Assembly (NCBI GenBank): GCA_964012805.1
Contig: CAXGUD010000071.1
Span: 1 to 14,427, forward strand
Direction of reading: 5' to 3'
DNA: 14,427 nucleotides
Source of the DNA: an uncultured Bacteriovoracaceae bacterium
Lineage (GTDB): Bacteria > Bdellovibrionota > Bacteriovoracia > Bacteriovoracales > Bacteriovoracaceae
The stretch's first letter is position 1, and every line of letters starts with the position of its first letter. The position numbers and the translations under genes are program-made. Under the pieces are notes generated by a model. The model saw only the letters and a program-made list of their open reading frames with translations, ran no database searches and was not told where the DNA came from. This document shows positions 1,255 through 14,427 of the stretch, piece after piece.

Positions 1255-1608
1255 TTAAAGTAGCGCCTCTATTTCCTCAGGAGGTCTTCCAACAACCGCT
1301 TTTGAATCACTTTCCAAAATAGGTCGTTCTAGAAGTTTGGGGTTTTTAATGAGTACGTCTATCCATTGATCTTGGGTAAGCTTTTTCTCCGCCAACTTTA
1401 ACTCCTTAAATAAGGCTTCTTTTTTTCTTATAACCTCTTCAGGTTTTTTTTGAAGTTTTTTGAAAAGAGACTTCAGTTGGGTTTTTTTAAGGGGTGTCTT
1501 AAGGTATTCAAAAATGATAAAAGAGGCGCCTTTTTTCTCAAGGATTTCAAGCCCTTGGCGGCTTTTTTGACATCTTGGATTGTGATAGTAAGTTAGACTT
1601 TTTCCCAT
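1255..1608 (-). CDS. ArsC/Spx/MgsR family protein (arsenate reductase-like, YfgD-type)
   Basis: N-terminal YYHNPRCQKSR catalytic-Cys motif, C-terminal PKLLERPI and VGRPPE; Shine-Dalgarno AAGGAG upstream of the ATG. Confidence 0.9.
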   Translation of the reverse strand: MGKSLTYYHNPRCQKSRQGLEILEKKGASFIIFEYLKTPLKKTQLKSLFKKLQKKPEEVIRKKEALFKELKLAEKKLTQDQWIDVLIKNPKLLERPILESDSKAVVGRPPEEIEALL

Positions 1609-1707
1609 TACTTTTCTCCTTTAAGTCTTAGAGTTTAAGCTTTGCATTTCTCTTCTTTTTAAAGCATAAAGAACACGAAACGACGAGAAAGAAGCCAGAG
1701 GGATCTT

Positions 1708-2601
1708 ATGACTCATATTGTAAAAAAAGACTTTCATAACCACGTTTTAAAGCTTCAAGACCTTATTTCAGGTGAGCTTAGAAAAATTGATCCAGAGATT
1801 CAGTTAACTGAAGATCATTGGGAAAGAAAAGACCATGTTGGGAATGAAGGCGGTGGAGGAAGGACCAGAGCTTTTGAAGGCCCCATTATTGAAAATGCAG
1901 GTGTAAATACTTCACTTGTCTTTGGCGAAGTTTCTCCCGAATTTGCTTCAAAATTAAAAGGCAAGAGTACAAAGATGTGGGCCACAGGACTTTCTCTTAT
2001 TATTCACCCAAGAAACCCCAGAGTTCCTACCGTTCATGCGAATTTTAGAATGATTGAAAATGGGGATCAGGTTTGGTTTGGTGGTGGCGCTGATTTGACT
2101 CCTTATTTCCCGTATGAAAGCGATTTTGCTCATTTTCATAAAACCTGGAAAAAAGCCTGTGATCCCTACGGCACTTTTGAGGAATTTAAAAAAACTTGTG
2201 ATAACTATTTTGTAAATAAACATAGAACTGGAGAGATGAGAGGTATTGGAGGAATTTTTTATGATCACTACAATACTGGTGATTTAGAAAAAGATTCTAA
2301 AATGGGTATTAATCTTTCTAATCATTTTATTGAGTCCTATTTTCCGATTGTTGAAAAAAGAGTCAAAGAAGAGTGGACTCCTGAAGATGAAGACTTTCAA
2401 CTCCACCGTCGGGGTCGTTACGTGGAGTTTAACCTCCTCCATGATAGAGGAACCACATTTGGTCTTAAAACGAATGGAAGAACAGACTCTATTCTTATCT
2501 CGCTTCCAAAAAGGTGTAAATTTACTTATCGTTATGAGCCGGAAGAAGGAAGCCCACACGCGAAGATGATGGACTACTATCGACCTAAAGATTGGGTTTA
2601 A
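1708..2601 (+). CDS. hemF: Oxygen-dependent coproporphyrinogen III oxidase
   Basis: Motifs GGGGRT, ENAGVN, SLIIHPRNPRVPTVHANFR, WFGGGADLTP, RGIGGIFYD, RRGRYVEFNLLHDRGTTFGL and SILISLP. Confidence 0.97.
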   Translation: MTHIVKKDFHNHVLKLQDLISGELRKIDPEIQLTEDHWERKDHVGNEGGGGRTRAFEGPIIENAGVNTSLVFGEVSPEFASKLKGKSTKMWATGLSLIIHPRNPRVPTVHANFRMIENGDQVWFGGGADLTPYFPYESDFAHFHKTWKKACDPYGTFEEFKKTCDNYFVNKHRTGEMRGIGGIFYDHYNTGDLEKDSKMGINLSNHFIESYFPIVEKRVKEEWTPEDEDFQLHRRGRYVEFNLLHDRGTTFGLKTNGRTDSILISLPKRCKFTYRYEPEEGSPHAKMMDYYRPKDWV

Positions 2602-2608
2602 GTTTGGC

Positions 2609-3175
2609 TTAGTATTCTGGTGCTATGTAAACATCAATTTCTGGGTTGTTCATTTCGTCTCTCAAGATGCCTTTAATTGCTTCAAGCGTTCCAGTTGTGG
2701 AGCTGGGGCAAGTGCCACAGGCGCCTTGGTATTTAACAATTAGAACGTTATCCTCAAAACTTAGACACTCAATATCCCCACCGTCTCCTTGAAGGCCCGG
2801 TCTTATTGTCCGGTCAAGAATCTCTTCAATTTCCTGTACCTCTTTGGGGAGCTTTCTTCTTCTTTCTGCTGCAGGGTCTGGATCGAAGTAATTGGGGTTA
2901 TGGTTAGGCATTTTTTCTTGAATGCATTCAGATACAAGTGGTTCTATATTGTCCCATTCTTCATATCCAAATTTCGTTATAGTGATGACATTATCAAAGA
3001 AGTGAATTTGATCGACTCCTCTTATAGTAAAGAGAGCACTAGCGAGTGGATTTTCGGTGGACTCTAAAGGTGATCTATAGCTTGAATTACCTTCTTCCTT
3101 CACTTTTTTATTAAGAATAAATTTAAGAGCATTAGGGTTTGGCGTTGGCTGAACTGTTAGATGTATGTCTGACAT
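2609..3175 (-). CDS. NifU/Nfu-family Fe-S carrier/scaffold protein (Nfu N-terminal domain plus NifU-C domain)
   Basis: TPNPNALKF N-terminal motif; IRPGLQGDGGDI and YQGACGTCPSS (CxxC). Start placed at MSDIHL (3175) because of the AGAGGAA Shine-Dalgarno; the track start at 3199 is less likely. Confidence 0.9.
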   Translation of the reverse strand: MSDIHLTVQPTPNPNALKFILNKKVKEEGNSSYRSPLESTENPLASALFTIRGVDQIHFFDNVITITKFGYEEWDNIEPLVSECIQEKMPNHNPNYFDPDPAAERRRKLPKEVQEIEEILDRTIRPGLQGDGGDIECLSFEDNVLIVKYQGACGTCPSSTTGTLEAIKGILRDEMNNPEIDVYIAPEY

Positions 3176-3206
3176 ATTCTTTCCTCTTTTAATTTTCAAA
3201 TGATGA

Positions 3207-4424
3207 TTAGAAAAATTCCTTCACTTTATGAAGTCCAGTAATAAAAGCATCGATCTCTTCCTTGGTATTGTAAAAACAAAGGGAGGCCCTGGCTGTACCG
3301 GGAATATTCAAAAACTCCATAAGAGGTTGGGTGCAATGGTGACCCGTCCTTATTGCAATACCTTGTTTATCAAGAAGTGAACCGATATCTTGTGGATGAA
3401 TGCCTTCCATAACAAAAGAAAGAACACTCGCTTTTCTTTTTGAAGTTCCTACAATTTTGAGTCCCTCAATTTTTTGCAGCTTTTCCGTGGCGTACTCAAG
3501 TAATTCTTGCTCATAATGAGCGATATTTTCTAGACCTATTTCCTGAACATAATCCAATGCACTTTTTAAAGCGATAACTCCAGCAATATGAGGGGTTCCA
3601 GCTTCAAATTTAAAAGGAAGTTCATTAAAGGTTGTCTTTTTGAAGCTAACTTTATCAATCATTTCTCCGCCACCTTGGTAGGGAGGCATTTTATTTAAAA
3701 GTTCCTCTTTTCCGTAGAGAACACCTACACCAGTTGGACCAAAAATTTTGTGGGAACTAAAGGCCAAAAAGTCACAATTTAATTCTTTAACATTTAGACT
3801 GTTGTGAGCGACGGCTTGAGCTGCATCCACCATAAAAATAGACCCAACTTTGTGGGCCATTGGGATCATTTCTTCTATGGGGTTGATTGTTCCCAAGGCA
3901 TTTGATGTATGAGAAATAGAAACAACTTTTGTTTTGTTATTTAAGAGCTTTTTATACTCTTCTAAAAGAATTTCCCCTTCCTCATTAATGGGAATTTCCT
4001 TTACTATAGCTCCTTTTTTTTGTGCAATAATTTGCCATGGAACAATATTAGAGTGGTGTTCAAGCGTAGATAAGAGAATTTCATCACCCTCTTGGAGGAA
4101 GGCATCTCCAAAACACTGGGCCACTAGATTAATAGACTCCGTCGTTCCTTTTGTGAAAATAATCTCATGAGAGTGCTCGCTTCCAATAAATTTTTGAACT
4201 GCCTCTCTTGTTTCTTCAAATTGACGTGTTCCTTTCTCACTTAAAAAATGAAGACCTCTGTGAACATTGGCAGTATCTTTTTGGTAATGCTGATCTAGAG
4301 CATTAATAACGGGCTTTGCTTTAAGAGTTGAAGCAGCATTATCAAAGTAAATGAGGTCTTTTCCATTAACCTTTTGAGAAAGTGCTGGAAATTGTTTTCT
4401 TACTTTTTCTATATCAATTGCCAT
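3207..4424 (-). CDS. sufS: SufS-type (group II) cysteine desulfurase
   Basis: YFDNAAST, ANVHRG, FTKGTTESIN, EHHSNIVPW, AFSSHK (PLP Lys), FEAGTP and RTGHHCTQP (catalytic Cys). Start at 4424 (or 4427) behind an AGGAG Shine-Dalgarno, overlapping the sufD stop. Confidence 0.95.
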   Translation of the reverse strand: MAIDIEKVRKQFPALSQKVNGKDLIYFDNAASTLKAKPVINALDQHYQKDTANVHRGLHFLSEKGTRQFEETREAVQKFIGSEHSHEIIFTKGTTESINLVAQCFGDAFLQEGDEILLSTLEHHSNIVPWQIIAQKKGAIVKEIPINEEGEILLEEYKKLLNNKTKVVSISHTSNALGTINPIEEMIPMAHKVGSIFMVDAAQAVAHNSLNVKELNCDFLAFSSHKIFGPTGVGVLYGKEELLNKMPPYQGGGEMIDKVSFKKTTFNELPFKFEAGTPHIAGVIALKSALDYVQEIGLENIAHYEQELLEYATEKLQKIEGLKIVGTSKRKASVLSFVMEGIHPQDIGSLLDKQGIAIRTGHHCTQPLMEFLNIPGTARASLCFYNTKEEIDAFITGLHKVKEFF

Positions 4425-5730
4425 CATTGGCTCCTTGTGTTTTTTCGTCAAGAATTTTGAATTGATTGAAGTAATTTTCAACTAGGGGAGAAACAAATTT
4501 TCTAATCCCAATATGAGAAATTTGGTCGAGAGCCTCTTGAACAAAAGCCTGGCACAGAATTTCCTGGGCCTTTCTTTCACTGACACCTCTTGTTCTTAAG
4601 TAAAAGGCTTGATTTTCATCAATTTGACCAATTGTGGCTCCATGAGCACATTTTACATCATCGGCTTCAATTTCTAAGATAGGCCTTGTGTTTACTTTTG
4701 CAGATTTACTAAGGAGTAGATTTTTATTGAGCTGGCCAGAGTTAACTTGTTGGGCATCTGGATTGACAATGACCTTACCTGTGAAAACCCCATGGGATTT
4801 CTCATCTAAAACGCCCTTAAAAAGTTGGTCGCTTGTTGTATTCGCAACTTTATGATCGATGACACTATAATTATCACAATGCTGATCTTCTTTAATAACA
4901 AAGAGACCGTGGATATTTGTATGGGCCCAAGTATCTTCTAAAAGTGAACTTATATTATTACGGGCAAGGTTTGCTCCAAGGCTCAGAGTAAAAGACTTAA
5001 AAGCACTATCTTTTTTGACTATTGCTTTTACTTCAGCGATATGAACTGCTTTTAAAGAGTCTCTTTGGCATTTTACATGCTCTACAGATGAGCCTTCTTC
5101 ACAAATAATAGATGTTTGAGCATTAACAAAGTAATGAGGTGTTTTTTCATATGCTTCGCAAAAGAAATGCTCAAGGGTCGAAATTTTTGAGTAAGAACCA
5201 ACTTTTATATGAACCCTTGGGCAATTTATAAAACTATCATTTTCTAATGTAGTTAAGTGTAGGATTTCAAGTGGTTCTTCTAAAACAAAATTAGGCTTTA
5301 TTTCGATGAATATTTCTTCAGGAGATATTGCTTTATTAAGTAGACCAAAAGAGTCTTTAGAAAATCCATTTGGCAAATCAGACTCTTTCTTTATAGAAAG
5401 AGAAATATTTTCATTTAAAAAAGTATAGCTAGACTCCATATTCCCATTAATAAAAACAATTCTATTACTATCTGTATTAATTAAATAACCTTCGATCATT
5501 TGAGGTGTTATTGCCTTTTTTGGAGCTCCTAATTTTAAATTTGAGTTAAGAAAAGAGGAAGCATTTGTATATTTCCAAATCTCTTCTTTTTTATCTGGGA
5601 GACCCAGTTTTTCAAATTCAGAAAGAGCATTTTTCTTTAGATTAAAAGAAGCTTCAGGATACTCCTTTTTGAGTTCCTTATGGAAAGCTTTCACTTCATT
5701 GATGAGGTGAGTGGACATATCTTGGGACAT
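4414..5730 (-). CDS. sufD: Fe-S cluster assembly protein SufD
   Basis: WKYT N-terminal motif, VFTGKVIV, NKNLLLS, PILEIEADDVKCAHGATIG and FYLRTRG. Start MSQDM at 5730, immediately after the sufC stop. Confidence 0.93.
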   Translation of the reverse strand: MSQDMSTHLINEVKAFHKELKKEYPEASFNLKKNALSEFEKLGLPDKKEEIWKYTNASSFLNSNLKLGAPKKAITPQMIEGYLINTDSNRIVFINGNMESSYTFLNENISLSIKKESDLPNGFSKDSFGLLNKAISPEEIFIEIKPNFVLEEPLEILHLTTLENDSFINCPRVHIKVGSYSKISTLEHFFCEAYEKTPHYFVNAQTSIICEEGSSVEHVKCQRDSLKAVHIAEVKAIVKKDSAFKSFTLSLGANLARNNISSLLEDTWAHTNIHGLFVIKEDQHCDNYSVIDHKVANTTSDQLFKGVLDEKSHGVFTGKVIVNPDAQQVNSGQLNKNLLLSKSAKVNTRPILEIEADDVKCAHGATIGQIDENQAFYLRTRGVSERKAQEILCQAFVQEALDQISHIGIRKFVSPLVENYFNQFKILDEKTQGANDGN

Positions 5731-5731
5731 T

Positions 5732-6508
5732 CTAATTTCCTTTTCCTTCAGTAGATTCCTTAATAAGCCAGTCATAGCCTCTTTTCTCAAGCTCAAGGGC
5801 CAGCTCTTTTCCACCAGACTTAATAATGCGACCTTTATAAAGGACATGAACTTTGTCTGGAACGATAAAGTTTAAAAGTCTTTGGTAGTGTGTTACTAGA
5901 ACTGTGGCATTGAATTTACTTTTAAGGGCATTAACCCCCTTTGCGACAATTTTCAAAGCATCGATATCAAGCCCTGAATCAGTTTCATCAAGAAGAGAGA
6001 GTCTTGGGTTTAAAACGGCCATTTGAAGAATCTCATTTTTCTTTTTTTCTCCGCCAGAAAAGCCTTGATTAACACTTCGGTCTAGAAAGCTACTTTCCAT
6101 TTCTAAAAGATCAAGTTTTGACTGTAGAAAAGTCCTAAACTCAGGGGCTTCCATTTCTTGGGCGCCTTGGTGAGTACAGATAGAATTGAAAGATTCTCTT
6201 AAAAAGCCAATATTTGTAACCCCTGGGATTTCAATGGGGTATTGGAATCCAAGGAAGATCCCTTCTTTGGCCCTTTCATCAGGTTCTAATTCCTGAATAT
6301 CTTTATTTTTTCCATTAACATCGTACTCAATACTCCCACCCGTCACTTCATAAGAAGGATGGCCAGCTATGACTTTTGCAAGAGTGCTTTTTCCGGACCC
6401 GTTGGGACCCATTATAGCATGGACTTCCCCAGCGTTAACTGTCAGATTAATCCCTCTTAAAATTTCACTACCTTCAATATTTGCATGTAAATCTTTAATC
6501 TTAATCAT
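5732..6508 (-). CDS. sufC: Fe-S cluster assembly ABC ATPase SufC
   Basis: Walker A GPNGSGKST, FQYPIEIPG, signature FSGGEKK, Walker B LLDETDSGLDIDAL and VTHYQRLL. Confidence 0.97.
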   Translation of the reverse strand: MIKIKDLHANIEGSEILRGINLTVNAGEVHAIMGPNGSGKSTLAKVIAGHPSYEVTGGSIEYDVNGKNKDIQELEPDERAKEGIFLGFQYPIEIPGVTNIGFLRESFNSICTHQGAQEMEAPEFRTFLQSKLDLLEMESSFLDRSVNQGFSGGEKKKNEILQMAVLNPRLSLLDETDSGLDIDALKIVAKGVNALKSKFNATVLVTHYQRLLNFIVPDKVHVLYKGRIIKSGGKELALELEKRGYDWLIKESTEGKGN

Positions 6509-6583
6509 TTCTACTTACCTTTAAACTTTTTTGATCTTTTGTTTGATTTTATTTATGTCTCTATTTTTTAATTTGTAATATCT

Positions 6584-8020
6584 TTAACCCACGCTGTTTT
6601 CTAATTTCATCTCGAGTAATTTTACGGCTTCAACAGAAAACTCTAAGGGAAGTTCTTTAAAAACCTCTCCGCAAAAACCGTTTACGATCATGGAAATACA
6701 TTTTTCCATATCGAGTCCTCTCGACTGAAGATAAAAAAGTTGATCTTCGCTAATCTTTGATGTCGAAGCTTCATGCTCCATAGTTGCAGTATCATTTTTT
6801 ACATCTATGTAAGGGTAGGTGTTAGCACTACACTTATCACCGACAAGCATAGAATCACATTGGGAATAATTCCTTGCTCCCGTTGCAGAAGGATTGATTT
6901 TAACCAAGCCCCTATAGTTATTTCTCGACTCATCTGCAGATATTCCCTTAGAAATAATAGTGCTTTTGGTATTTTTACCAATATGAATCATCTTAGTTCC
7001 AGTATCTGCCTGCATCTTATGGTTTGTAAGGGCGACTGAATAGAAAGCACCTTGGGAGTTATCACCGATAAGGTTACAGCCAGGGTACTTCCACGTGATA
7101 GCTGAACCAGCCTCTACCTGGGTCCAGGAAATCTTAGAATTTCTTCCTAAACAATTGCCCCTTTTTGTAACAAAATTATAGATGCCACCATCTCCATTTT
7201 TGTCACCGGCATACCAGTTTTGTACTGTAGAGTATTTAATTTCGGCATCGTCTAAGGCAATAAGCTCAACAATGGCAGCGTGGAGTTGGTTTTCATCTCT
7301 TTCAGGTGCGGTACAACCTTCTAGGTAGTTTACAAAACTGCCTTCATCAGCAATGACCAATGTTCTTTCAAACTGGCCTGTTTCTTTTGCATTAATTCTA
7401 AAATAAGTTGAGAGGTCAATAGGGCATTTGACCCCTTTGGGGATATAGACAAAAGATCCATCACTAAAAACAGCTGAGTTTAAGGCTGCATAAAAATTGT
7501 CAGAAAAAGGAACAACTGTTCCCAGGTATTTTTTGACAAGTTCAGGGTAGTCTTTAACAGCTTCAGAAATAGAGCAAAAGATAACGCCTAACTTTTTTAA
7601 ATCTTCTTGATGAGTTGTTGCCACTGAAACGCTATCAAATACAGCATCGACGGCCACACCAGAAATTCTTTTTTGTTCGGAGAGAGGGATTCCTAATTTT
7701 TCAAACGTGGCCAATAACTCAGGATCAACCTCGTCCAAACTTTCAAGTTCAGGCTTTTTCTTTGGAGCCGCATAATAATAGAGGTCTTCAAAGTCAATTT
7801 CAGGAATATCTAAATGGGCCCAGTTGGGATGAGTCATTGTTTTCCAATGGCGGAAGGCCTTAAGCCTATAATCCAGCATCCACTCAGGTTCATTTTTCTT
7901 TTTAGAAAGGAGTCTGACTATGTCTTCATTAAGCCCTTTCGGAAACTCTTCAGTTTCAATATCAGTATAGAACCCATACTTGTAATCTTTATTTTTGTTG
8001 ATCATTTCTTCCGAGCTCAT
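6584..8020 (-). CDS. sufB: Fe-S cluster assembly protein SufB
   Basis: [63 protein letters not shown] and HEASTSKI. Start MSSEEM at 8020 with GAAGGA upstream; the track start at 8128 overlaps the Rrf2 gene. Confidence 0.97.
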
Positions 8021-8064
8021 TACGAATCCTTCACTACTTGATTTTGTTTTAATAACGTTATTTT

Positions 8065-8538
8065 TTATTTTATTCCTAGCATTTCTTTTAAATTGGGTTT
8101 GCCTGCTTCGCCTTCTAGATCCACCCACTGATCATTTTCAAAGAAGAGCTCTTCAAGGCTAATTTGTCCTAAAAAAGCCATGACCTTACTGTTCAGGCGG
8201 TCTATGGGGGTAATAATATTGCAGGTACTGTGGAGGTTACAGAGTCCTTTGTTGCTCTGGCAAAAGTTGTCCTCTTTAATGTCTTCTGCAATTTTTGTAA
8301 TTTCCATAAAGGTAATATCACTTAAATTTTTGTGGAGGGTATAACCTCCTCTAAGCCCTTGGATGGATTTGACAATGCCGTGGTGGTTCATTGCTTGCAT
8401 CACCTTAGCAGTCGTATCAAACGGGGTTTTTAGAGCATCACAAATTTCTCTAACTGTGATGATAGAGTCTTCCTCTTTTTCACCCATAATTTTTAAGGCC
8501 ATGAGGGCGTACTCTGTTTTTTTGTTAATTTTTAACAT
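8065..8538 (-). CDS. Rrf2-family transcriptional regulator (IscR/SufR-like) heading the suf operon
   Basis: TEYALMAL helix, winged [11 protein letters not shown] wing, C-terminal C-x6-C-x5-C (8221-8262); first gene of the suf cluster. Confidence 0.9.
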
Positions 8539-8603
8539 TTAAAAAACCTATTAAAATTTCGAAATCCCCATAAAACCTATGAAATCCAAAGCCTTGTACC
8601 CCA

Positions 8604-8666
8604 AAATAGGGTAAAAATAAACCTAATTCTAACTTACCATGAAATAGGTTAAAATTTGCCTTATTT
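8604..8666. promoter_or_regulatory. Two 25-bp imperfect palindromes (7-11-7), candidate Rrf2 operators flanking a minus-strand -10 element
   Basis: AAATAGG-GTAAAAATAAA-CCTAATT (8604-8628) and AAATAGG-TTAAAATTTGC-CTTATTT (8642-8666). Minus-strand TAGAAT (8626-8631) and TGGTAAGTT (8631-8639) lie between them, the former overlapping the edge of the first box. Confidence 0.55.
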
Positions 8667-8731
8667 ATTACTTTTCAAAGTAAGATCTTTTCTAGACTTA
8701 AAGCTTATATTCCATATTTTTTATTGAACTA

Positions 8732-10486
8732 TTACATTCTTTTAGGACAAGGAATACCAAGGAGCGAGAGCCCTTTCTCCATAACCTTGGCCACAGATGC
8801 TGAAAGAAACAGGCGCGCCTGCTTGAGCTTTTCAGTCTCTGCCTTGGCCACAGAGCACTCAGCGTAAAAGGAATTATAAAGTTTTCCTAAATCATAAAGG
8901 TATGAGCAAAGGGCGCTTGTCTTGTATTGTTGGCATGCCATTTCAACGGTTGAGTTAAAAAGTGCTAGCTGGATCATAAGGTTCTTCTCCTGATCCTTTT
9001 CTAAGACACTCCAGTCAAAAGAAGTTTGATACTCAGGAAGGCCAACTTTTTGAATAAGTGATTGGATACGAGCATAAACATATTGAAGATAAGGACCAGT
9101 TTCTCCATCTAATTTGAGCCACTCTTTCATATCGAAAACAATTTTTCTATTATTATCAACTCTAACCATCCCATATTTTATAGCGCCATTAGCAACCATT
9201 TTTGCCGTTTCATCAATTTCTTTCTGGTCCCACTCGCCCAGGTATTGGTTCAGGTATTGCTCTTTAATCGCCTTTTCCATACTAGTTAAAAGGCTCATAA
9301 GAGGGACTATGTTTCCCTTCCTTGAGCTCATGGCACCATCTGGAAGTTCAACAACATTGTATTTTAAGTGAAAGCAGTTTTTTGATTGCTCAAATCCCAT
9401 TTTTTCTAGTGTTTTAAAGATTTGGTTGAAGTGGTGGGCTTGTCTATCGTCTACAACATAAATACTTTTTTCAATTTGGTATTCTTCAAACTTTTTCTTA
9501 GCAAGAGAAATATCTTTAGTTGCATAATTACCATTACCATCTGATTTAATAAGAATACAAAAGCCGAGCTTGTCTTCTTTGAGGTCTATTCCTATGGCCC
9601 CCTCTGACTCAACAAGCGTTCCTTTTTTATGAAGCTCTTGGGCCAATTCAACAGATGAATGATCTTCCTCAGACTCAAAAAACCATCTTTCAAAATTAAC
9701 CCCTGCCCAATCATAAGCGTCTTTCATTAGTTCTAAAGACCATTCCCTCGTTTTTTTCCAGAGGTCGTAGAATTCTCCTTCTTCTTTTTTTAATTGCTGC
9801 AGGATTTCTCCAAGCTGTACTCGGTTATTAGTTTCTTTATTTGTCCCTAATTCCTCTTCAAGCTTCGCAGTTGCTCTTGTGTAAAGTGTTCCTAACCAGG
9901 CTCCCTTATCTGTTTCTGGGAGAGGATCTTCGTTGTGGTTTTTTAAGTACCATAAGCATTTGGCAACATGGGTACCAGAGTCTCCTGGGTAGGTTACTGG
10001 AATTGTTTTATGGTTACAATATTGATGAAGAAGAACAATCGCATTTCCCAAACAAAGGTTTCTCATGTGGCCTACATGCAATTCTTTATGAGTGTTTGGT
10101 TGAGAAAATTCAATCATAGTTTTGGGGGCATTTTCGAAGATTACTTTTTGAAAATATCCACCTTCTAAAATATCAAGGAGGACATGCTCCCCTAAAAAAA
10201 GTGGGGAGACAAAGACGTTGAGGTAAGGTCCCTGAGCTTGGTAACTTTCAAGAAGGTTATTTTCTTCAATATTGTCAGCAATTTTTTGAGCGATGGCCGC
10301 GGGAGACATCTTAAAACTTTTGGCCAAAGGAAAACAAGGAAATGCAAAATGACCCATTTTTGGGTTTGGTGGTTTTCCAATTTGGTCGTAAATATCTTTT
10401 ATCGTAAGTTTTGCTTCTGGAAAAGATTGTTTGATGGCCTTTTGAAGGAGGTTCGCTAGCTCAGAAAATGTTTTGTTGTGCATCAT
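8732..10486 (-). CDS. argS: Arginine--tRNA ligase
   Basis: GHFAFPCF and GPYLN N-domain motifs, EFSQPNTHKELHVGHMRN (HIGH), KSDGNGNYATKDI, MSSRKG (KMSKS equivalent), GETGPYLQY, NSFY and C-terminal KRM. Confidence 0.97.
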   Translation of the reverse strand: MMHNKTFSELANLLQKAIKQSFPEAKLTIKDIYDQIGKPPNPKMGHFAFPCFPLAKSFKMSPAAIAQKIADNIEENNLLESYQAQGPYLNVFVSPLFLGEHVLLDILEGGYFQKVIFENAPKTMIEFSQPNTHKELHVGHMRNLCLGNAIVLLHQYCNHKTIPVTYPGDSGTHVAKCLWYLKNHNEDPLPETDKGAWLGTLYTRATAKLEEELGTNKETNNRVQLGEILQQLKKEEGEFYDLWKKTREWSLELMKDAYDWAGVNFERWFFESEEDHSSVELAQELHKKGTLVESEGAIGIDLKEDKLGFCILIKSDGNGNYATKDISLAKKKFEEYQIEKSIYVVDDRQAHHFNQIFKTLEKMGFEQSKNCFHLKYNVVELPDGAMSSRKGNIVPLMSLLTSMEKAIKEQYLNQYLGEWDQKEIDETAKMVANGAIKYGMVRVDNNRKIVFDMKEWLKLDGETGPYLQYVYARIQSLIQKVGLPEYQTSFDWSVLEKDQEKNLMIQLALFNSTVEMACQQYKTSALCSYLYDLGKLYNSFYAECSVAKAETEKLKQARLFLSASVAKVMEKGLSLLGIPCPKRM

Positions 10487-11008: not shown

Positions 11009-11452
11009 TTATTTATCAAGATATTTAACCATGAGAAGGTGCTTTCCAACTGGAGGGATGTCAAATAAATCTCCGATTCCTTCAAACCCTATCTTCCTAT
11101 AAAACCCGATAGCTTCTTCTCTTGCGTTACACCAAACAAGGTGGCAAAGGTTTTGTTTTACTATAGGAAAAGCGACTTGCAGGAGTGCAGAACTTAATCC
11201 CTTGTATTGATGCTCAACGAGCGTTGCCATCCCTTGAAGCTGGTACTGGTAAGGCTCTTCAATATCCGGATGTTTTTCAAAGTACATCGATGCAACACTG
11301 ACAAGTTGGCCATCAATAAAGGCTCCCAAGTGAAAAGTTTGGTCTTCATCATCGCCTTTAAAGTTGCAGGACTCAATTGGATTATCCCCACCAAAAAGTA
11401 TCTTACTTCTGATAGGGTACGTATCTTGAGCCGATATTCTCAATACTTTCAA
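11009..11452 (-). CDS. GNAT-family N-acetyltransferase (YitI/ElaA-like)
   Basis: TFHLGAF, QLQGMAT, HQYKGLSSAL (motif A), WCNAREEAIGFYRKIGF (motif B) and FDIPPVGKHLLM. TTG start. Confidence 0.9.
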   Translation of the reverse strand: MKVLRISAQDTYPIRSKILFGGDNPIESCNFKGDDEDQTFHLGAFIDGQLVSVASMYFEKHPDIEEPYQYQLQGMATLVEHQYKGLSSALLQVAFPIVKQNLCHLVWCNAREEAIGFYRKIGFEGIGDLFDIPPVGKHLLMVKYLDK

Positions 11453-11529: not shown

Positions 11530-12195
11530 TTAAAATGTCTTGCTCATTCTAAAAAGGTTTTTCATTGCAAGTTCGGAAAGGGCTTTGGAAAAGAAAGCAA
11601 AGACTGTGTTATTTATGCCTGAGTGAGGTCCGATCCAAGAAGCCGTAGTATGAAAAAGGCATTGATTTTTTGAGTCTGCAACGTGGATAATTCCCTTTAA
11701 ATTTTTCAAAAATCCTTGGTCAAAAAGGAAGTGGTAAGTACCAGGAGACTTTATCCTTGGAATTTTAAAATTAAGCCTCATGTCAAAAGGAAGAAGCAGC
11801 GATGATAAAAGGAAGTCAACTCTACCTTTACTCTCTAAATAGCGGCTCTCTTTTATAAAACCTATATGATTTTTATAGATTTCGTATTGAGAAAGCTTTC
11901 TAAGGGCAAACCTGCAGGATTTTTTATGAAGTCCTGTAACTGAAAACTTTAACTTTTGTTTCTGTTCTTTTTTTTCTTTAAGAGTTTTAACATCAGATGA
12001 GCTAATAATAATACCTTTGGTGATTTTTTGAATAAGCTTTGGTGAATAGGGGAGGGTATCTAAGCGGATTAATTTCGCCTTTTTATGAGAATAAGGCATT
12101 TTTTCTGCATTTTGTGCTTGAGTTGGAAAAAGAAAAATGGAACAAAGGAAGATGATCAAATGAGTTGGAAAGAAAGATCGGCGGTTGTTTTGCAT
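11530..12195 (-). CDS. Hypothetical exported protein, possible START/SRPBCC-like fold
   Basis: Start MQNNRR (12195, AAAGG upstream; 12216 is an alternative) with a signal-like IIFLCSIFLFPTQA. LSQYEIYKNHIGFIKESRY and QGFLKNLKG loosely resemble START/polyketide-cyclase motifs. The fold call is tentative. Confidence 0.7.
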   Translation of the reverse strand: MQNNRRSFFPTHLIIFLCSIFLFPTQAQNAEKMPYSHKKAKLIRLDTLPYSPKLIQKITKGIIISSSDVKTLKEKKEQKQKLKFSVTGLHKKSCRFALRKLSQYEIYKNHIGFIKESRYLESKGRVDFLLSSLLLPFDMRLNFKIPRIKSPGTYHFLFDQGFLKNLKGIIHVADSKNQCLFHTTASWIGPHSGINNTVFAFFSKALSELAMKNLFRMSKTF

Positions 12196-12312
12196 TGTGC
12201 CTTTTCTAGGTTTCATTAGCTCTCTAACCTGAAATTAAATCATTCAAAATAAGATTATGTTAGGTCATAAAGACTAGAGTTTACCTTAAATAAATAAGAT
12301 GGAATTAAAAAA

Positions 12313-14427
12313 ATGGCAATTGAATCTGTAAAAAGAAAAGGGAAGGCTAAAGAGGCTACCATTGAAAAGAAAGATCAAAGGTGGCATTGCAGGAATAGGA
12401 TATCACTGGTCTTTGGAAGTAATCATCATGAAGACTTAGATACCTATGTTTATGGTGAGCATTCTGTCGATTTTAAAACCGTTAAATTTCATCAGGCCAA
12501 AAGTAAGGCCATAGAGGAAATTTTAGACAACTGTATTGATGAGTTCTACAGAGGCCATGTGACCCAAATCCATACTACTTTATCAGATGATAATAAAAAA
12601 GTGATCATCGAAGATAATGGAATTGGTTTTCCCCTAACTAAGGTTCAGCAGGTTTATACAGAGTTTCGAACAGGTTCTAAGTTTAAGGATGAAGAAGTTG
12701 ACTCAAAAGGTTTTCTAAATCGGACTCTTGGCCAAAATGGTTTAGGAGCTGCCGCAACTTGTCTCACAAGTGACGAGTTTAAGGTAACTGTAAGGCATTA
12801 CAATTCGAAGAAAGAGCAAGTTTTTAACTTTTTAGATGGAGCTTTAAAAGTTAAAAAAAATAGGCCAAAACCTTTTAAAGGTCATTCCGGCGTAAAAATA
12901 GAGCTTATTCTTGCTAAGGAAGTTTATAAAAATAATAAAATAGATGAAGAACTTCTAAGAAAAAGGATCATTGATTTAGCGTATAACAATCCAGGTCTTA
13001 CTTTCTATTTCAATAAAGAAAAATACCTTTTTAAAAAAGGTCTTTATGAATTAGCTCAAAGAGTTGATGAAAAAAATGCTCAGCTTTTTGGAGAGGATTG
13101 CTATAAATATGAAGTTAAGGGGACCAAGAGTAAAAAAACATTAAAGGGTCAAATCGACTTATCCCTATCTTTGACTATTGATAAACAAAATGAAGATAGA
13201 GAGAGGTTTATTTCTTTTGTTAATTCAACTCCAACATTTGATGGTGGTTTCCACCACGATAGAATCAGAAGACTTTTTGTCAATGCAATTAAAGACAAGC
13301 TGGAGAGGCAGGCTAAGAAGGGTAAATTAACCCTAACAGATAATGATATTCTGACTGGAATTACCTTTATTGTTGGCGTGACTATGCCTAATCCTAGATT
13401 CGAATCCCAAACAAAGAGAAAGCTTGTAAGAGATGCGCATCTAGAAAAGGCCATTGAAATTTTTATGAAGAAGGCAATTGATAAATTCTTCAGAAAAAAT
13501 AAAGAGTTTTTAGAGCTAGTTTTGGAGAGGTGTCGTTCACGTCATCGCTTTCAAGAGCTAAAAGATGCATCGAAAAAGGCAAGAAAGCAGAAAAAACAAA
13601 GGATTGAGAAGCTTCTTGATGCGAATGAAAGAAAGCATAGAGATAAATGCACTCTTTTTATTTGTGAGGGAGATTCGGCCATTGGGGGGTTGAGATCTGC
13701 TCGAAATAAACTTTACCAAGGTGGGATTGCCCTTAAAGGAAAACCCATGAATGTTGCTCAAGCCAATATTAAGGAAATTCTTGATAACCAAGAATTCTCA
13801 GACATCATGGCCTCCATTGGACTTGTTATAGGACAGCAACCAGACTTTAAAAAACTTAGATTTTCAAAAATTGTTTTTTTAGCAGACTCTGATGTTGATG
13901 GTGGGCATATTAATACACTTCTTACGAACTTTTTCTATCAATTTTGGCCTGAACTTTTTGAATTTAAAGTGATTCAAATAGCAAGGGCTCCTTTATTTGA
14001 AATTGTTACTGAAAAAGGAAGAAAATTTGCTGAATCTCCAGGTGAGTTAGAGCAAATTAAAAAATCTGGAATCAAAATTAAAGAAATTCAAAGAAATAAA
14101 GGGTTAGGGGAAATGTCTCCTGAAGCTTTTAAGTATATTTTAGGAAGGGAAAATTATACGGCCATTGAAATTGAAGACAATATCGCCGCAAAAGGAATGC
14201 TTGAAATTTGTTTTGGAAAAGACTCCGCTCCTCGAAAAGAACTTCTTATGGCCCCTTCCTCTGAGGGTGAAGAAAGTATCTCTGTTTATTTCAAAGGAAA
14301 AAAGAAAGTAGTCTCTTCTAAAAAAGAAACTAAGAAAAAAGAAACTAAGAAAAAAGAAACTAAGAAAAAAGTAACTAAGAAAAAAGTAACTAAGAAAAAA
14401 GTAACTAAGAAAAAAGTAACTAAGAAA
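12313..14427 (+). CDS. Divergent type IIA DNA topoisomerase subunit B (GHKL ATPase, transducer, TOPRIM) with Lys-rich repeat tail; 3' truncated (>=705 aa)
   Basis: Manually translated, no stop from ATG 12313 to the end. EEILDNCIDE (12514-12543), EDNGIG (12610-12627), TGSKF, GQNGLG (12730-12747), SFVNS..GGFH, PRFESQTK, EGDSA (13666-13680), LKGK (13732-13743), DSDVDG (13885-13902), KGLGEM (from 14098) and RKELL. Confidence 0.95.
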   Translation, partial: MAIESVKRKGKAKEATIEKKDQRWHCRNRISLVFGSNHHEDLDTYVYGEHSVDFKTVKFHQAKSKAIEEILDNCIDEFYRGHVTQIHTTLSDDNKKVIIEDNGIGFPLTKVQQVYTEFRTGSKFKDEEVDSKGFLNRTLGQNGLGAAATCLTSDEFKVTVRHYNSKKEQVFNFLDGALKVKKNRPKPFKGHSGVKIELILAKEVYKNNKIDEELLRKRIIDLAYNNPGLTFYFNKEKYLFKKGLYELAQRVDEKNAQLFGEDCYKYEVKGTKSKKTLKGQIDLSLSLTIDKQNEDRERFISFVNSTPTFDGGFHHDRIRRLFVNAIKDKLERQAKKGKLTLTDNDILTGITFIVGVTMPNPRFESQTKRKLVRDAHLEKAIEIFMKKAIDKFFRKNKEFLELVLERCRSRHRFQELKDASKKARKQKKQRIEKLLDANERKHRDKCTLFICEGDSAIGGLRSARNKLYQGGIALKGKPMNVAQANIKEILDNQEFSDIMASIGLVIGQQPDFKKLRFSKIVFLADSDVDGGHINTLLTNFFYQFWPELFEFKVIQIARAPLFEIVTEKGRKFAESPGELEQIKKSGIKIKEIQRNKGLGEMSPEAFKYILGRENYTAIEIEDNIAAKGMLEICFGKDSAPRKELLMAPSSEGEESISVYFKGKKKVVSSKKETKKKETKKKETKKKVTKKKVTKKKVTKKKVTKK
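14320..14427 (+). repeat. 15-bp coding tandem repeat, 7 full copies plus a partial, encoding KKETK x3 then KKVTK x4; truncated by the window end
   Basis: aaaaaagaaactaag x3 (14320-14364), aaaaaagtaactaag x4 (14365-14424), then aaa; in frame with the topoisomerase. Confidence 0.95.

Follow-up and report, generated by a model that had tools for sequence, protein, structure and literature searches.

The locus described here raises the question of how a bacterial chromosome came to hold, among housekeeping genes, a type IIA topoisomerase (Topo IIA) with the signatures of phage and eukaryotic enzymes, and what such an enzyme does beside the gyrase of the same cell. The window, that is the whole stretch of DNA that was analysed, comprises 14,427 nucleotides from an uncultured Bacteriovoracaceae bacterium (GenBank assembly GCA_964012805.1, contig CAXGUD010000071.1, here contig C71), and the gene in question, which encodes the B subunit, lies at its right-hand end. 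An earlier reading of the same letters (the original prediction) had proposed a domesticated virus-derived or deep-branching Topo IIA lineage, perhaps replacing topoisomerase IV (Topo IV). As judged from sequence comparisons, this B subunit and the A subunit encoded after it probably form an intact two-subunit Topo IIA that belongs to the chromosomal core of the Bacteriovoracaceae, represents a deep branch of its own and likely works as a decatenase/relaxase in place of topoisomerase VI (Topo VI).

The B subunit and its A partner

The B gene occupies 12313..14427 on the forward strand, with 705 codons in the window and a reading frame that is open at the contig end. The original prediction had closed the gene at 14250; the frame runs on through a lysine-repeat tail off the contig and finishes on contig C50, with its stop codon at G000:C50:74-76. 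The features of the gene are as follows.

12313..14427, forward strand: Topo IIA B subunit, from the open reading frame and domain matches; full length 726 amino acids (aa) in the database protein P0002
12364..12420, forward strand: N-terminal strap, aa 18-36, of the phage-type H..R....GS form instead of the bacterial RKRPGMYIG
12421..12513, forward strand: 31-residue segment with the phage/eukaryote-type insert, aa 37-67; predicted beta-hairpin, strands 39-47 and 52-60
12508..13032, forward strand: GHKL ATPase domain, about aa 66-240, with E69, N73, D101, G103/G105, K123 and the GQNGLG lid at aa 140-145
13105..13569, forward strand: transducer domain PF00204, aa 265-419, with Q366 and K368
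13651..13950, forward strand: TOPRIM domain PF01751, aa 447-546, with EGDSA and the D-x-D-x-D metal site, and without the large GyrB insertion after it
14083..14247, forward strand: GyrB C-terminal region PF00986, aa 591-645, a match under the curated cut-off
14263..14427, forward strand: lysine-rich tail from a 15-nt repeat, at which the assembly is broken

The B subunit is an intact Topo IIA B moiety with the catalytic residues of its GHKL, transducer and TOPRIM domains in place. Indeed, every segment quoted in the original prediction is present in the frame, and the GHKL and TOPRIM residues that it had called complete are invariant in 120-121 of the 121 B proteins of the family (Bacteriovoracaceae/Halobacteriovorax, as defined by homolog names): E69, N73, D76, E77, D101, G103, G105, K123 and G140/G143/G145, together with Q366, K368, E452-G-D-S-A, K477 and D525/D527/D529. 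The replacement of the canonical strap and the absence of the large proteobacterial TOPRIM insertion were likewise borne out. In particular, exactly 31 residues separate FGS from EEILDN, a length kept in 114/121 family proteins, and the GyrB/ParE rows of an 85-row alignment have about 5-13 residues at this position. In the same alignment, phage, giant-virus-like and eukaryotic enzymes share with B the insert, the GxNG lid and a C-terminal RK motif, none of which occurs in the GyrB/ParE rows, while a deletion in the GHKL domain (KVQQ--VYT), FESQTK and KGLGEMSP lean towards bacterial enzymes of the Bacteroidota ParE kind (e.g., Bernardetia ParE). The AlphaFold (AF2) model of B, with a mean predicted local distance difference test score (pLDDT) of 92.7, renders the insert as a beta-hairpin. 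PF16898 was not reported by the domain search of B. The tails of the family B proteins have a median of 66 aa (range 4-136) and a median lysine plus arginine content of 38%; similar repeats are also found at other contig ends and loci of the same genome.

The downstream A subunit, whose recovery the original prediction had called for, lies outside the window. Contig C71, which the window covers entirely, ends in the 15-nt lysine repeat with which contig C50 begins, and the two overlap by 55 nt exactly, inside the repeat. On C50, 22 nt after the B stop, a gene of 487 aa (G000:C50:99-1562) encodes a protein with HPHG, the catalytic Arg120-Tyr121 of the winged helix, a C-gate and a PF00521 match of 290 bits. 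This A subunit carries neither a beta-pinwheel C-terminal domain (CTD), as PF03989 matches only the gyrA on contig C20, nor a GyrA box, and its full-length homologs, with frames of 465-544 aa in all cases, are also devoid of the pinwheel.

An inventory of gyrAB and parCE in this genome, which is rated 100% complete, returned only two loci with GyrB domains and two with GyrA domains. The second pair, on contig C20, is an ordinary gyrase that passes the GyrB and GyrA cut-offs and has six pinwheel repeats and GyrA-box-like motifs. With DNA gyrase the family enzyme shares the fold and the catalytic residues; it differs in an A subunit without CTD or GyrA box and in a B subunit that scores 283-299 bits on gyrase models with cut-offs of 740-882 (best GyrB/ParE score 299 vs 740), is 25% identical to the GyrB of its own genome and is not nested among gyrases. 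Single positions in both subunits differ as well. In the alignment, the ATP pocket of B has I104 and V194 where E. coli GyrB has what we take to be Arg76 and Thr165, and residues 75-85 of A have no equivalents of the GyrA positions that are presumably Ser83 and Asp87 in E. coli numbering. From these positions, lower sensitivity of the pair to quinolones and coumarins is a possibility.

Position among type IIA enzymes and viral relatives

Trees were computed with FastTree (B, 198 rows; B, A and B+A, 45 rows) and, for B+A, with IQ-TREE under LG+G4 (32 of those 45 rows) and C20-PMSF (26 rows), while a 47-row B tree with deep unnamed rows served as a quick search only. All trees are unrooted, and the groupings compared by the approximately unbiased (AU) test were chosen after preliminary trees. 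Bacteroidota are represented by a single row that pairs subunits from two genera; chlamydial, spirochaete and Mycobacterium smegmatis sequences are not represented. The family forms a clade (100/100) on a long stem, and the bacterial side, made up of Bacteroidota Topo IV, the enzymes of WRP3 and pBS32, gyrase and Topo IV, excludes it at 100/100 under both models. The family attaches between this bacterial side and the entire remainder of phage and eukaryotic rows, with support of 95/92 (LG+G4) and 97/95 (C20-PMSF), and the trees of B alone and A alone agree with this placement. No nesting inside bacterial GyrB or ParE was thus found, and the trees place the A/B pair as its own deep branch, apart from bacterial gyrase/Topo IV and from the sampled phage enzymes. 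The domesticated, deep-branching lineage with phage/eukaryote-type signatures outside GyrB/ParE that the original prediction had outlined is in this respect upheld by alignment and trees.

The likeness to eukaryotic Top2 and T4 that the original prediction had noted fared less well as a statement of kinship. The family enzyme has in common with eukaryotic and Nucleocytoviricota (NCLDV) Top2 the N-terminal insert, the lid asparagine and several A-subunit motifs; it is split in two genes, unlike these enzymes, and grouping with them was rejected (AU p=5e-59). The best fused proteins longer than 1140 aa are only 28% identical to it. Grouping with T4 plus eukaryotes was weakly rejected (p=0.03 and 0.018). 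Two further candidates were set aside: P0187, which has a similar strap, is 30% identical, lacks the insert and is not sister to the family in the 47-row tree, and for a mosaic origin of the enzyme no region strongly favoured another placement in per-region likelihoods.

The enzyme might also be a bacterial Topo IV of the Bacteroidota, Chlamydia or spirochaete type that has no CTD, has evolved fast and owes its phage look to long branches. Like bacterial Topo IV, the pair has an A2B2 gene layout, coexists with a separate gyrase, has no GyrA box and is predicted to act as a decatenase. Its GHKL deletion, FESQTK and KGLGEMSP are common to Bernardetia ParE, its A subunit reaches 176 bits on a spirochaete ParC model vs 86-133 for phage A subunits, and a chlamydial ParC without CTD is described in the accessible part of PMC8216471. 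However, a real Bacteroidota ParC scores 753 and 406 bits on the spirochaete and chlamydial models, on which A scores 176 and 120; the pair falls far under all ParE/ParC cut-offs and outside the bacterial clade, its 31-residue insert aligns with phage and eukaryotic enzymes, and no full-length member has a pinwheel. Grouping was rejected with Bacteroidota ParE/ParC (AU p=4e-5 and 2e-5), on the one row available for that phylum and with chlamydial and spirochaete rows absent, and with core gyrase/Topo IV (p=2e-7). A Topo IV ancestry is on balance very improbable.

Large-phage Topo IIA (T4 gp39+gp60/gp52, ORM_20, Atu_ph07, Asteriusvirus and a clade of uncultured IMG/VR phages) shares with the family the N-terminal insert, the GxNG lid, the lack of a TOPRIM insertion and a short, CTD-less A subunit, and gives the highest pairwise scores, at 28-35% identity; further phage-type characters are the length of A and its C-gate region, which is colinear with that of the IMG/VR enzymes. 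The family enzyme differs from these in being a chromosomal core gene that the trees nest in no sampled phage clade and in its lysine-rich tails and bacterial-style KGLGEMSP. Among 1.84 billion database representatives, family members match at 62-95% identity, followed by a gap down to about 38% or less, and the best match outside the family is viral (P0126, 31%, itself 96% identical to an IMG/VR contig). The AU test did not reject a sister position of the family to ORM_20 plus the IMG/VR phages (p=0.19 and 0.095). If the pair is the enzyme proposed above, capture from an unsampled large-phage lineage by the ancestor of the family is somewhat favoured as its origin.

Several observations weigh against such a viral origin. 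In the maximum-likelihood (ML) trees, a short branch connects the family with the bacterial side, and grouping with the IMG/VR clade alone was rejected (p=1.5e-4, from a fixed-topology test). Viral contigs were scanned three times with proteins of the family, which gave no member of the clade and only relatives of 25-39% identity. The PHROG score was discarded as evidence of phage origin and is not discriminating, because the ordinary GyrB of the genome scores higher on phrog_543 than B does (564 vs 486 bits). Fold search was likewise set aside on this point, as gyrase, Topo IV, human Top2 and phage T6 all come out at similar ranks in Foldseek. Scans of viral sequences that started from P0127 and Bernardetia ParE gave no match. 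A scan of the genome collection with the phage-clade alignment was insensitive: of 128 candidates it yielded only 3 loci, and the family itself was missed. Since no virus with a clade member was found, a viral origin is likely, short of demonstrated: of the earlier proposal, domestication and the phage-type signatures stand, while derivation from a virus finds no nesting in any sampled phage clade.

The same placement can be explained by a cellular relic with the same activity, an ancient CTD-less type IIA line that split off before gyrase and Topo IV and was either retained or taken up again from a cellular lineage now extinct, and not from a phage. Such a relic would fit the ML position as sister to all bacterial-side enzymes (0.96 for A alone, besides the values above) and the cellular context of all members found, none of which sits on a viral contig. 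However, the joining branch is short (0.15-0.19) in an unrooted tree, the sister position to ORM_20/IMG-VR phages is not rejected, and phage and plasmid enzymes (WRP3, pBS32) also fall on the bacterial side. Confinement to one family of one phylum would moreover need very many losses, and nothing lies between 62% and about 38% identity. The relic is therefore regarded as unlikely, and capture from a large phage is kept as the preferred origin.

Other unusual Topo IIA genes were encountered in the same material. A 330-kb contig binned in a Pseudobdellovibrionaceae metagenome-assembled genome (MAG) (G251:C2; L098, L118-L121) carries an IMG/VR-clade Topo IIA together with a phage DNA polymerase, rIIA/rIIB, ribonucleotide reductase and a tail protein, which is a weak hint that phages of this kind may infect Bdellovibrionota, or else a binning artefact; a second ParC-like gene, of 752 aa, is present in the G251 genome as well. 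Fused B+A single chains (P0132, P0140, P0167 and P0237; 1074-1087 aa) are placed by the trees within the IMG/VR phage clade of two-subunit enzymes and away from the eukaryote/NCLDV fusion, and this placement suggests that the two fusions are independent. The pair on the Bacillus subtilis plasmid pBS32 (L097, 948-5009) lies beside a replication initiator; in the trees it forms a 100/100 group with the enzyme of Lactococcus phage WRP3 that falls outside gyrase/Topo IV. One MAG of family f13 (G095:C4; L078, L122) contains a fused Top2 of eukaryote/giant-virus-like type, probably as contamination.

Chromosomal context and distribution in Bdellovibrionota

The original prediction had seen no phage or mobility genes near the B gene, and the comparison with relatives agrees with it. 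A follows B in 29/29 relatives' loci, and the argS-GNAT-B-A-ihfA-merR block spans the position of the contig break in five relatives (L090, L094, L095, L166 and L167). This housekeeping synteny is kept across genera, including single-contig genomes. The GC content, the GC content at third codon positions (GC3) and the codon use of the B gene are those of the host genome. Prophage integration, mis-binning and a chimeric contig were considered in this context. Nothing at this locus points to any of them, though the 330-kb phage-like contig with a related enzyme in another predator MAG shows that such artefacts occur. The presence of B in 114/120 family genomes, the block conserved across the contig break and the host-like GC3 and codon use rule them out, and two unannotated neighbours of B have no PHROG match; the chance that is left to them is negligible.

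The neighbours on the left, which give the setting and do not belong to the enzyme, are the following.

11530..12216, reverse strand: divergently oriented conserved neighbour of 228 aa without Pfam match, in 28/29 relatives' loci; Atlas look-alikes (0.93-0.97) have an SRPBCC/polyketide-cyclase/START-like fold
11009..11452, reverse strand: GNAT acetyltransferase, a conserved neighbour in 22/29 relatives' loci (short flanks)

The look-alikes suggest an SRPBCC/START-like fold for the 228-aa protein. Housekeeping genes fill 1255-10486 (ArsC family, coproporphyrinogen III oxidase, NifU/Nfu, SUF-type Fe-S genes with an Rrf2 regulator, and arginyl-tRNA synthetase; the SUF names were read from sequence), and at 1-1032 on the reverse strand a FecR-domain protein with a long Lys/Glu low-complexity tail runs off the other contig end. 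Downstream of A on C50 are ihfA-like and then merR-like genes, again named from their sequences. In G185, B (C2:2346802) and A (C2:398075) are unlinked, about 1.9 Mb apart, and extra DNA separates B from the conserved upstream gene in G185 and G230 (L092, L094).

In the genome comparison, B was found at E<=1e-70 in 62/62 family genomes and in 0/189 other Bdellovibrionota genomes; a wider draw gave it in 114/120 family genomes, and the identities in the family were 68-77%. A was found in 78/81 family genomes. The DNA also occurs in marine metagenomes. Two metatranscriptome runs that were found by this gene have contigs over parts of B; contigs cannot show transcription, and these were not used as evidence. 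Topo VI has the mirror pattern. Its B subunit is present in 174/189 of the other genomes and in 0/62 and 0/120 family genomes, Top6A is absent from the enzyme's own genome, and Top6A and Top6B are adjacent in 10/10 regions from other families. By table count, the 189 other genomes have one GyrB-type gene in 178 cases, two or more in 8 and none in 3. With a single GyrB-type gene in 178 and Topo VI in 174 of them, there was mostly no Topo IV to replace, and the enzyme for which the A/B pair stands in is most likely Topo VI; the replacement of Topo IV that had been proposed originally does not fit these counts.

The 15 other genomes without Topo VI comprise three of family f3 with a second GyrB/ParE-like gene, ten small ones with gyrase only and two single misses in families that bear Topo VI. 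The second divergent pair of the small f3 genomes (L076, L079, L113; B 812-816 aa, A 772 aa) is, on these gene counts, a third solution to the same slot. In family f10 (L065-L068), Topo VI B matches the archaeal model mostly at E of about 1e-150 vs about 1e-115 in other families, and is possibly a separate acquisition.

The replacement of Topo VI also has points against it. The ten gyrase-only genomes, which belong to small-genome families (f2, f5, f7 and f14; G003, G005, G035, G218 and kin, 0.9-2.2 Mb), have a single GyrB-type gene and neither of the two enzymes; gyrase on its own is thus apparently enough. B is missing from six of the 120 family genomes; in one of these, the 98% complete G258, Topo VI and the two genes flanking B are absent as well, which fits an assembly gap, and in another (G269) the upstream gene is missing and the downstream gene is kept. 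An in-place swap was rejected, as Topo VI lies at unrelated loci in the 10/10 regions checked. Since the complementary distribution goes back to one event on a single branch, it is not statistically independent evidence, and a GyrB proxy tree leaves the direction of change unsettled, as it groups f1 with f2 and keeps the phylum backbone open.

Some of these points would also suit a specialised job of the pair, such as DNA relaxation while the cell grows as a multi-chromosome filament or the digestion and handling of prey DNA, with gyrase as the decatenase and a separate loss of Topo VI. Gyrase-only genomes exist in the phylum, the locus of the pair differs from that of Topo VI, and the basic tails vary widely in length. 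However, the pair is retained near-universally in single copy with invariant catalytic residues, a purifying conservation beside a separate gyrase, and its pattern mirrors that of Topo VI. The specialised job is for these reasons considered rather improbable, and substitution for Topo VI remains the preferred role.

Predicted activity and significance

Topo IIA enzymes close an ATP-operated clamp, cleave DNA through tyrosines and pass one duplex through another. In the pair described here, an A2B2 tetramer would capture ATP in the GHKL clamp, cut one duplex on both strands by Tyr121 of A and the TOPRIM metal site of B, and pass a second duplex through the cut. Lacking beta-pinwheel and GyrA box, it would not wrap DNA and would relax and unlink rather than supercoil, with supercoiling left to the separate gyrase on contig C20. 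The basic tails of B and A may, speculatively, provide DNA contacts in place of the missing CTD. In the accessible text of two sources, wrapping is performed by the CTD, and gyrase deprived of it relaxes DNA (PMC2647321, PMC8216471). In what is available of PMC11302465, Topo VI of bacteria without Topo IV is explained as a decatenase that complements a temperature-sensitive E. coli parE mutant (parE-ts; unpublished data cited there). The family enzyme and the Topo VI of other Bdellovibrionota would thus likely do the same cellular job, that of a second type II enzyme beside gyrase, while being different protein families (Topo VI is of type IIB) that have only the GHKL fold in common with B (28-32 bits) and are mutually exclusive in distribution.

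Surveys have described bacterial type IIA enzymes as one clade of gyrase and Topo IV, apart from phage, giant-virus and eukaryotic enzymes (PMC9752973, PMC2647321, each as far as accessible). In the available part of PMC9752973, Bacteria are monophyletic for Topo IIA, and Bacteriovorax marinus SJ is one row of Table S1, unnamed in the main text; that of PMC2647321 counts four subfamilies, with the M. smegmatis enzyme as a possible fifth. The latter is a stand-alone recent arrival by its description and, on that description only, distinct from a family-wide core gene. The accessible portion of PMC11302465 deals with the Topo VI of Bdellovibrio, with no mention of Bacteriovorax; that of PMC11318664 lists B. 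bacteriovorus with Topo VI and labels Bd0005 'Top IV', differing from PMC11302465; and that of PMC12642874 treats only gyrA. No description of the family enzyme was found in the literature searched; subscription papers (e.g., a 2007 Biochimie review), tree files and bioRxiv supplements could mention it. Database labels of its homologs read gyrB, 'toprim domain protein' or hypothetical, and the enzyme is therefore hidden by annotation.

Collectively, the family enzyme represents a cellular, family-wide exception on the path between the phage and the bacterial groups, and this position bears directly on the question whether the Topo IIA of cells was taken over from viruses. The mirror distribution gives a clean test of the role of bacterial Topo VI, which the accessible part of PMC11302465 leaves open, and since cultured Halobacteriovorax strains carry the enzyme, as judged from homolog names, genetics and biochemistry are feasible. 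It may tentatively be proposed, at less than even odds, that the enzyme is the closest living outgroup of all bacterial gyrase and Topo IV, still CTD-less and phage-like, and fixed by the whole family as an essential decatenase in exchange for its type IIB enzyme. If true, the Bacteriovoracaceae would be a natural case of a type IIB enzyme exchanged for a type IIA one and, being culturable, could serve as a model of the virus-to-cell origin that has been proposed for bacterial Topo IIA.

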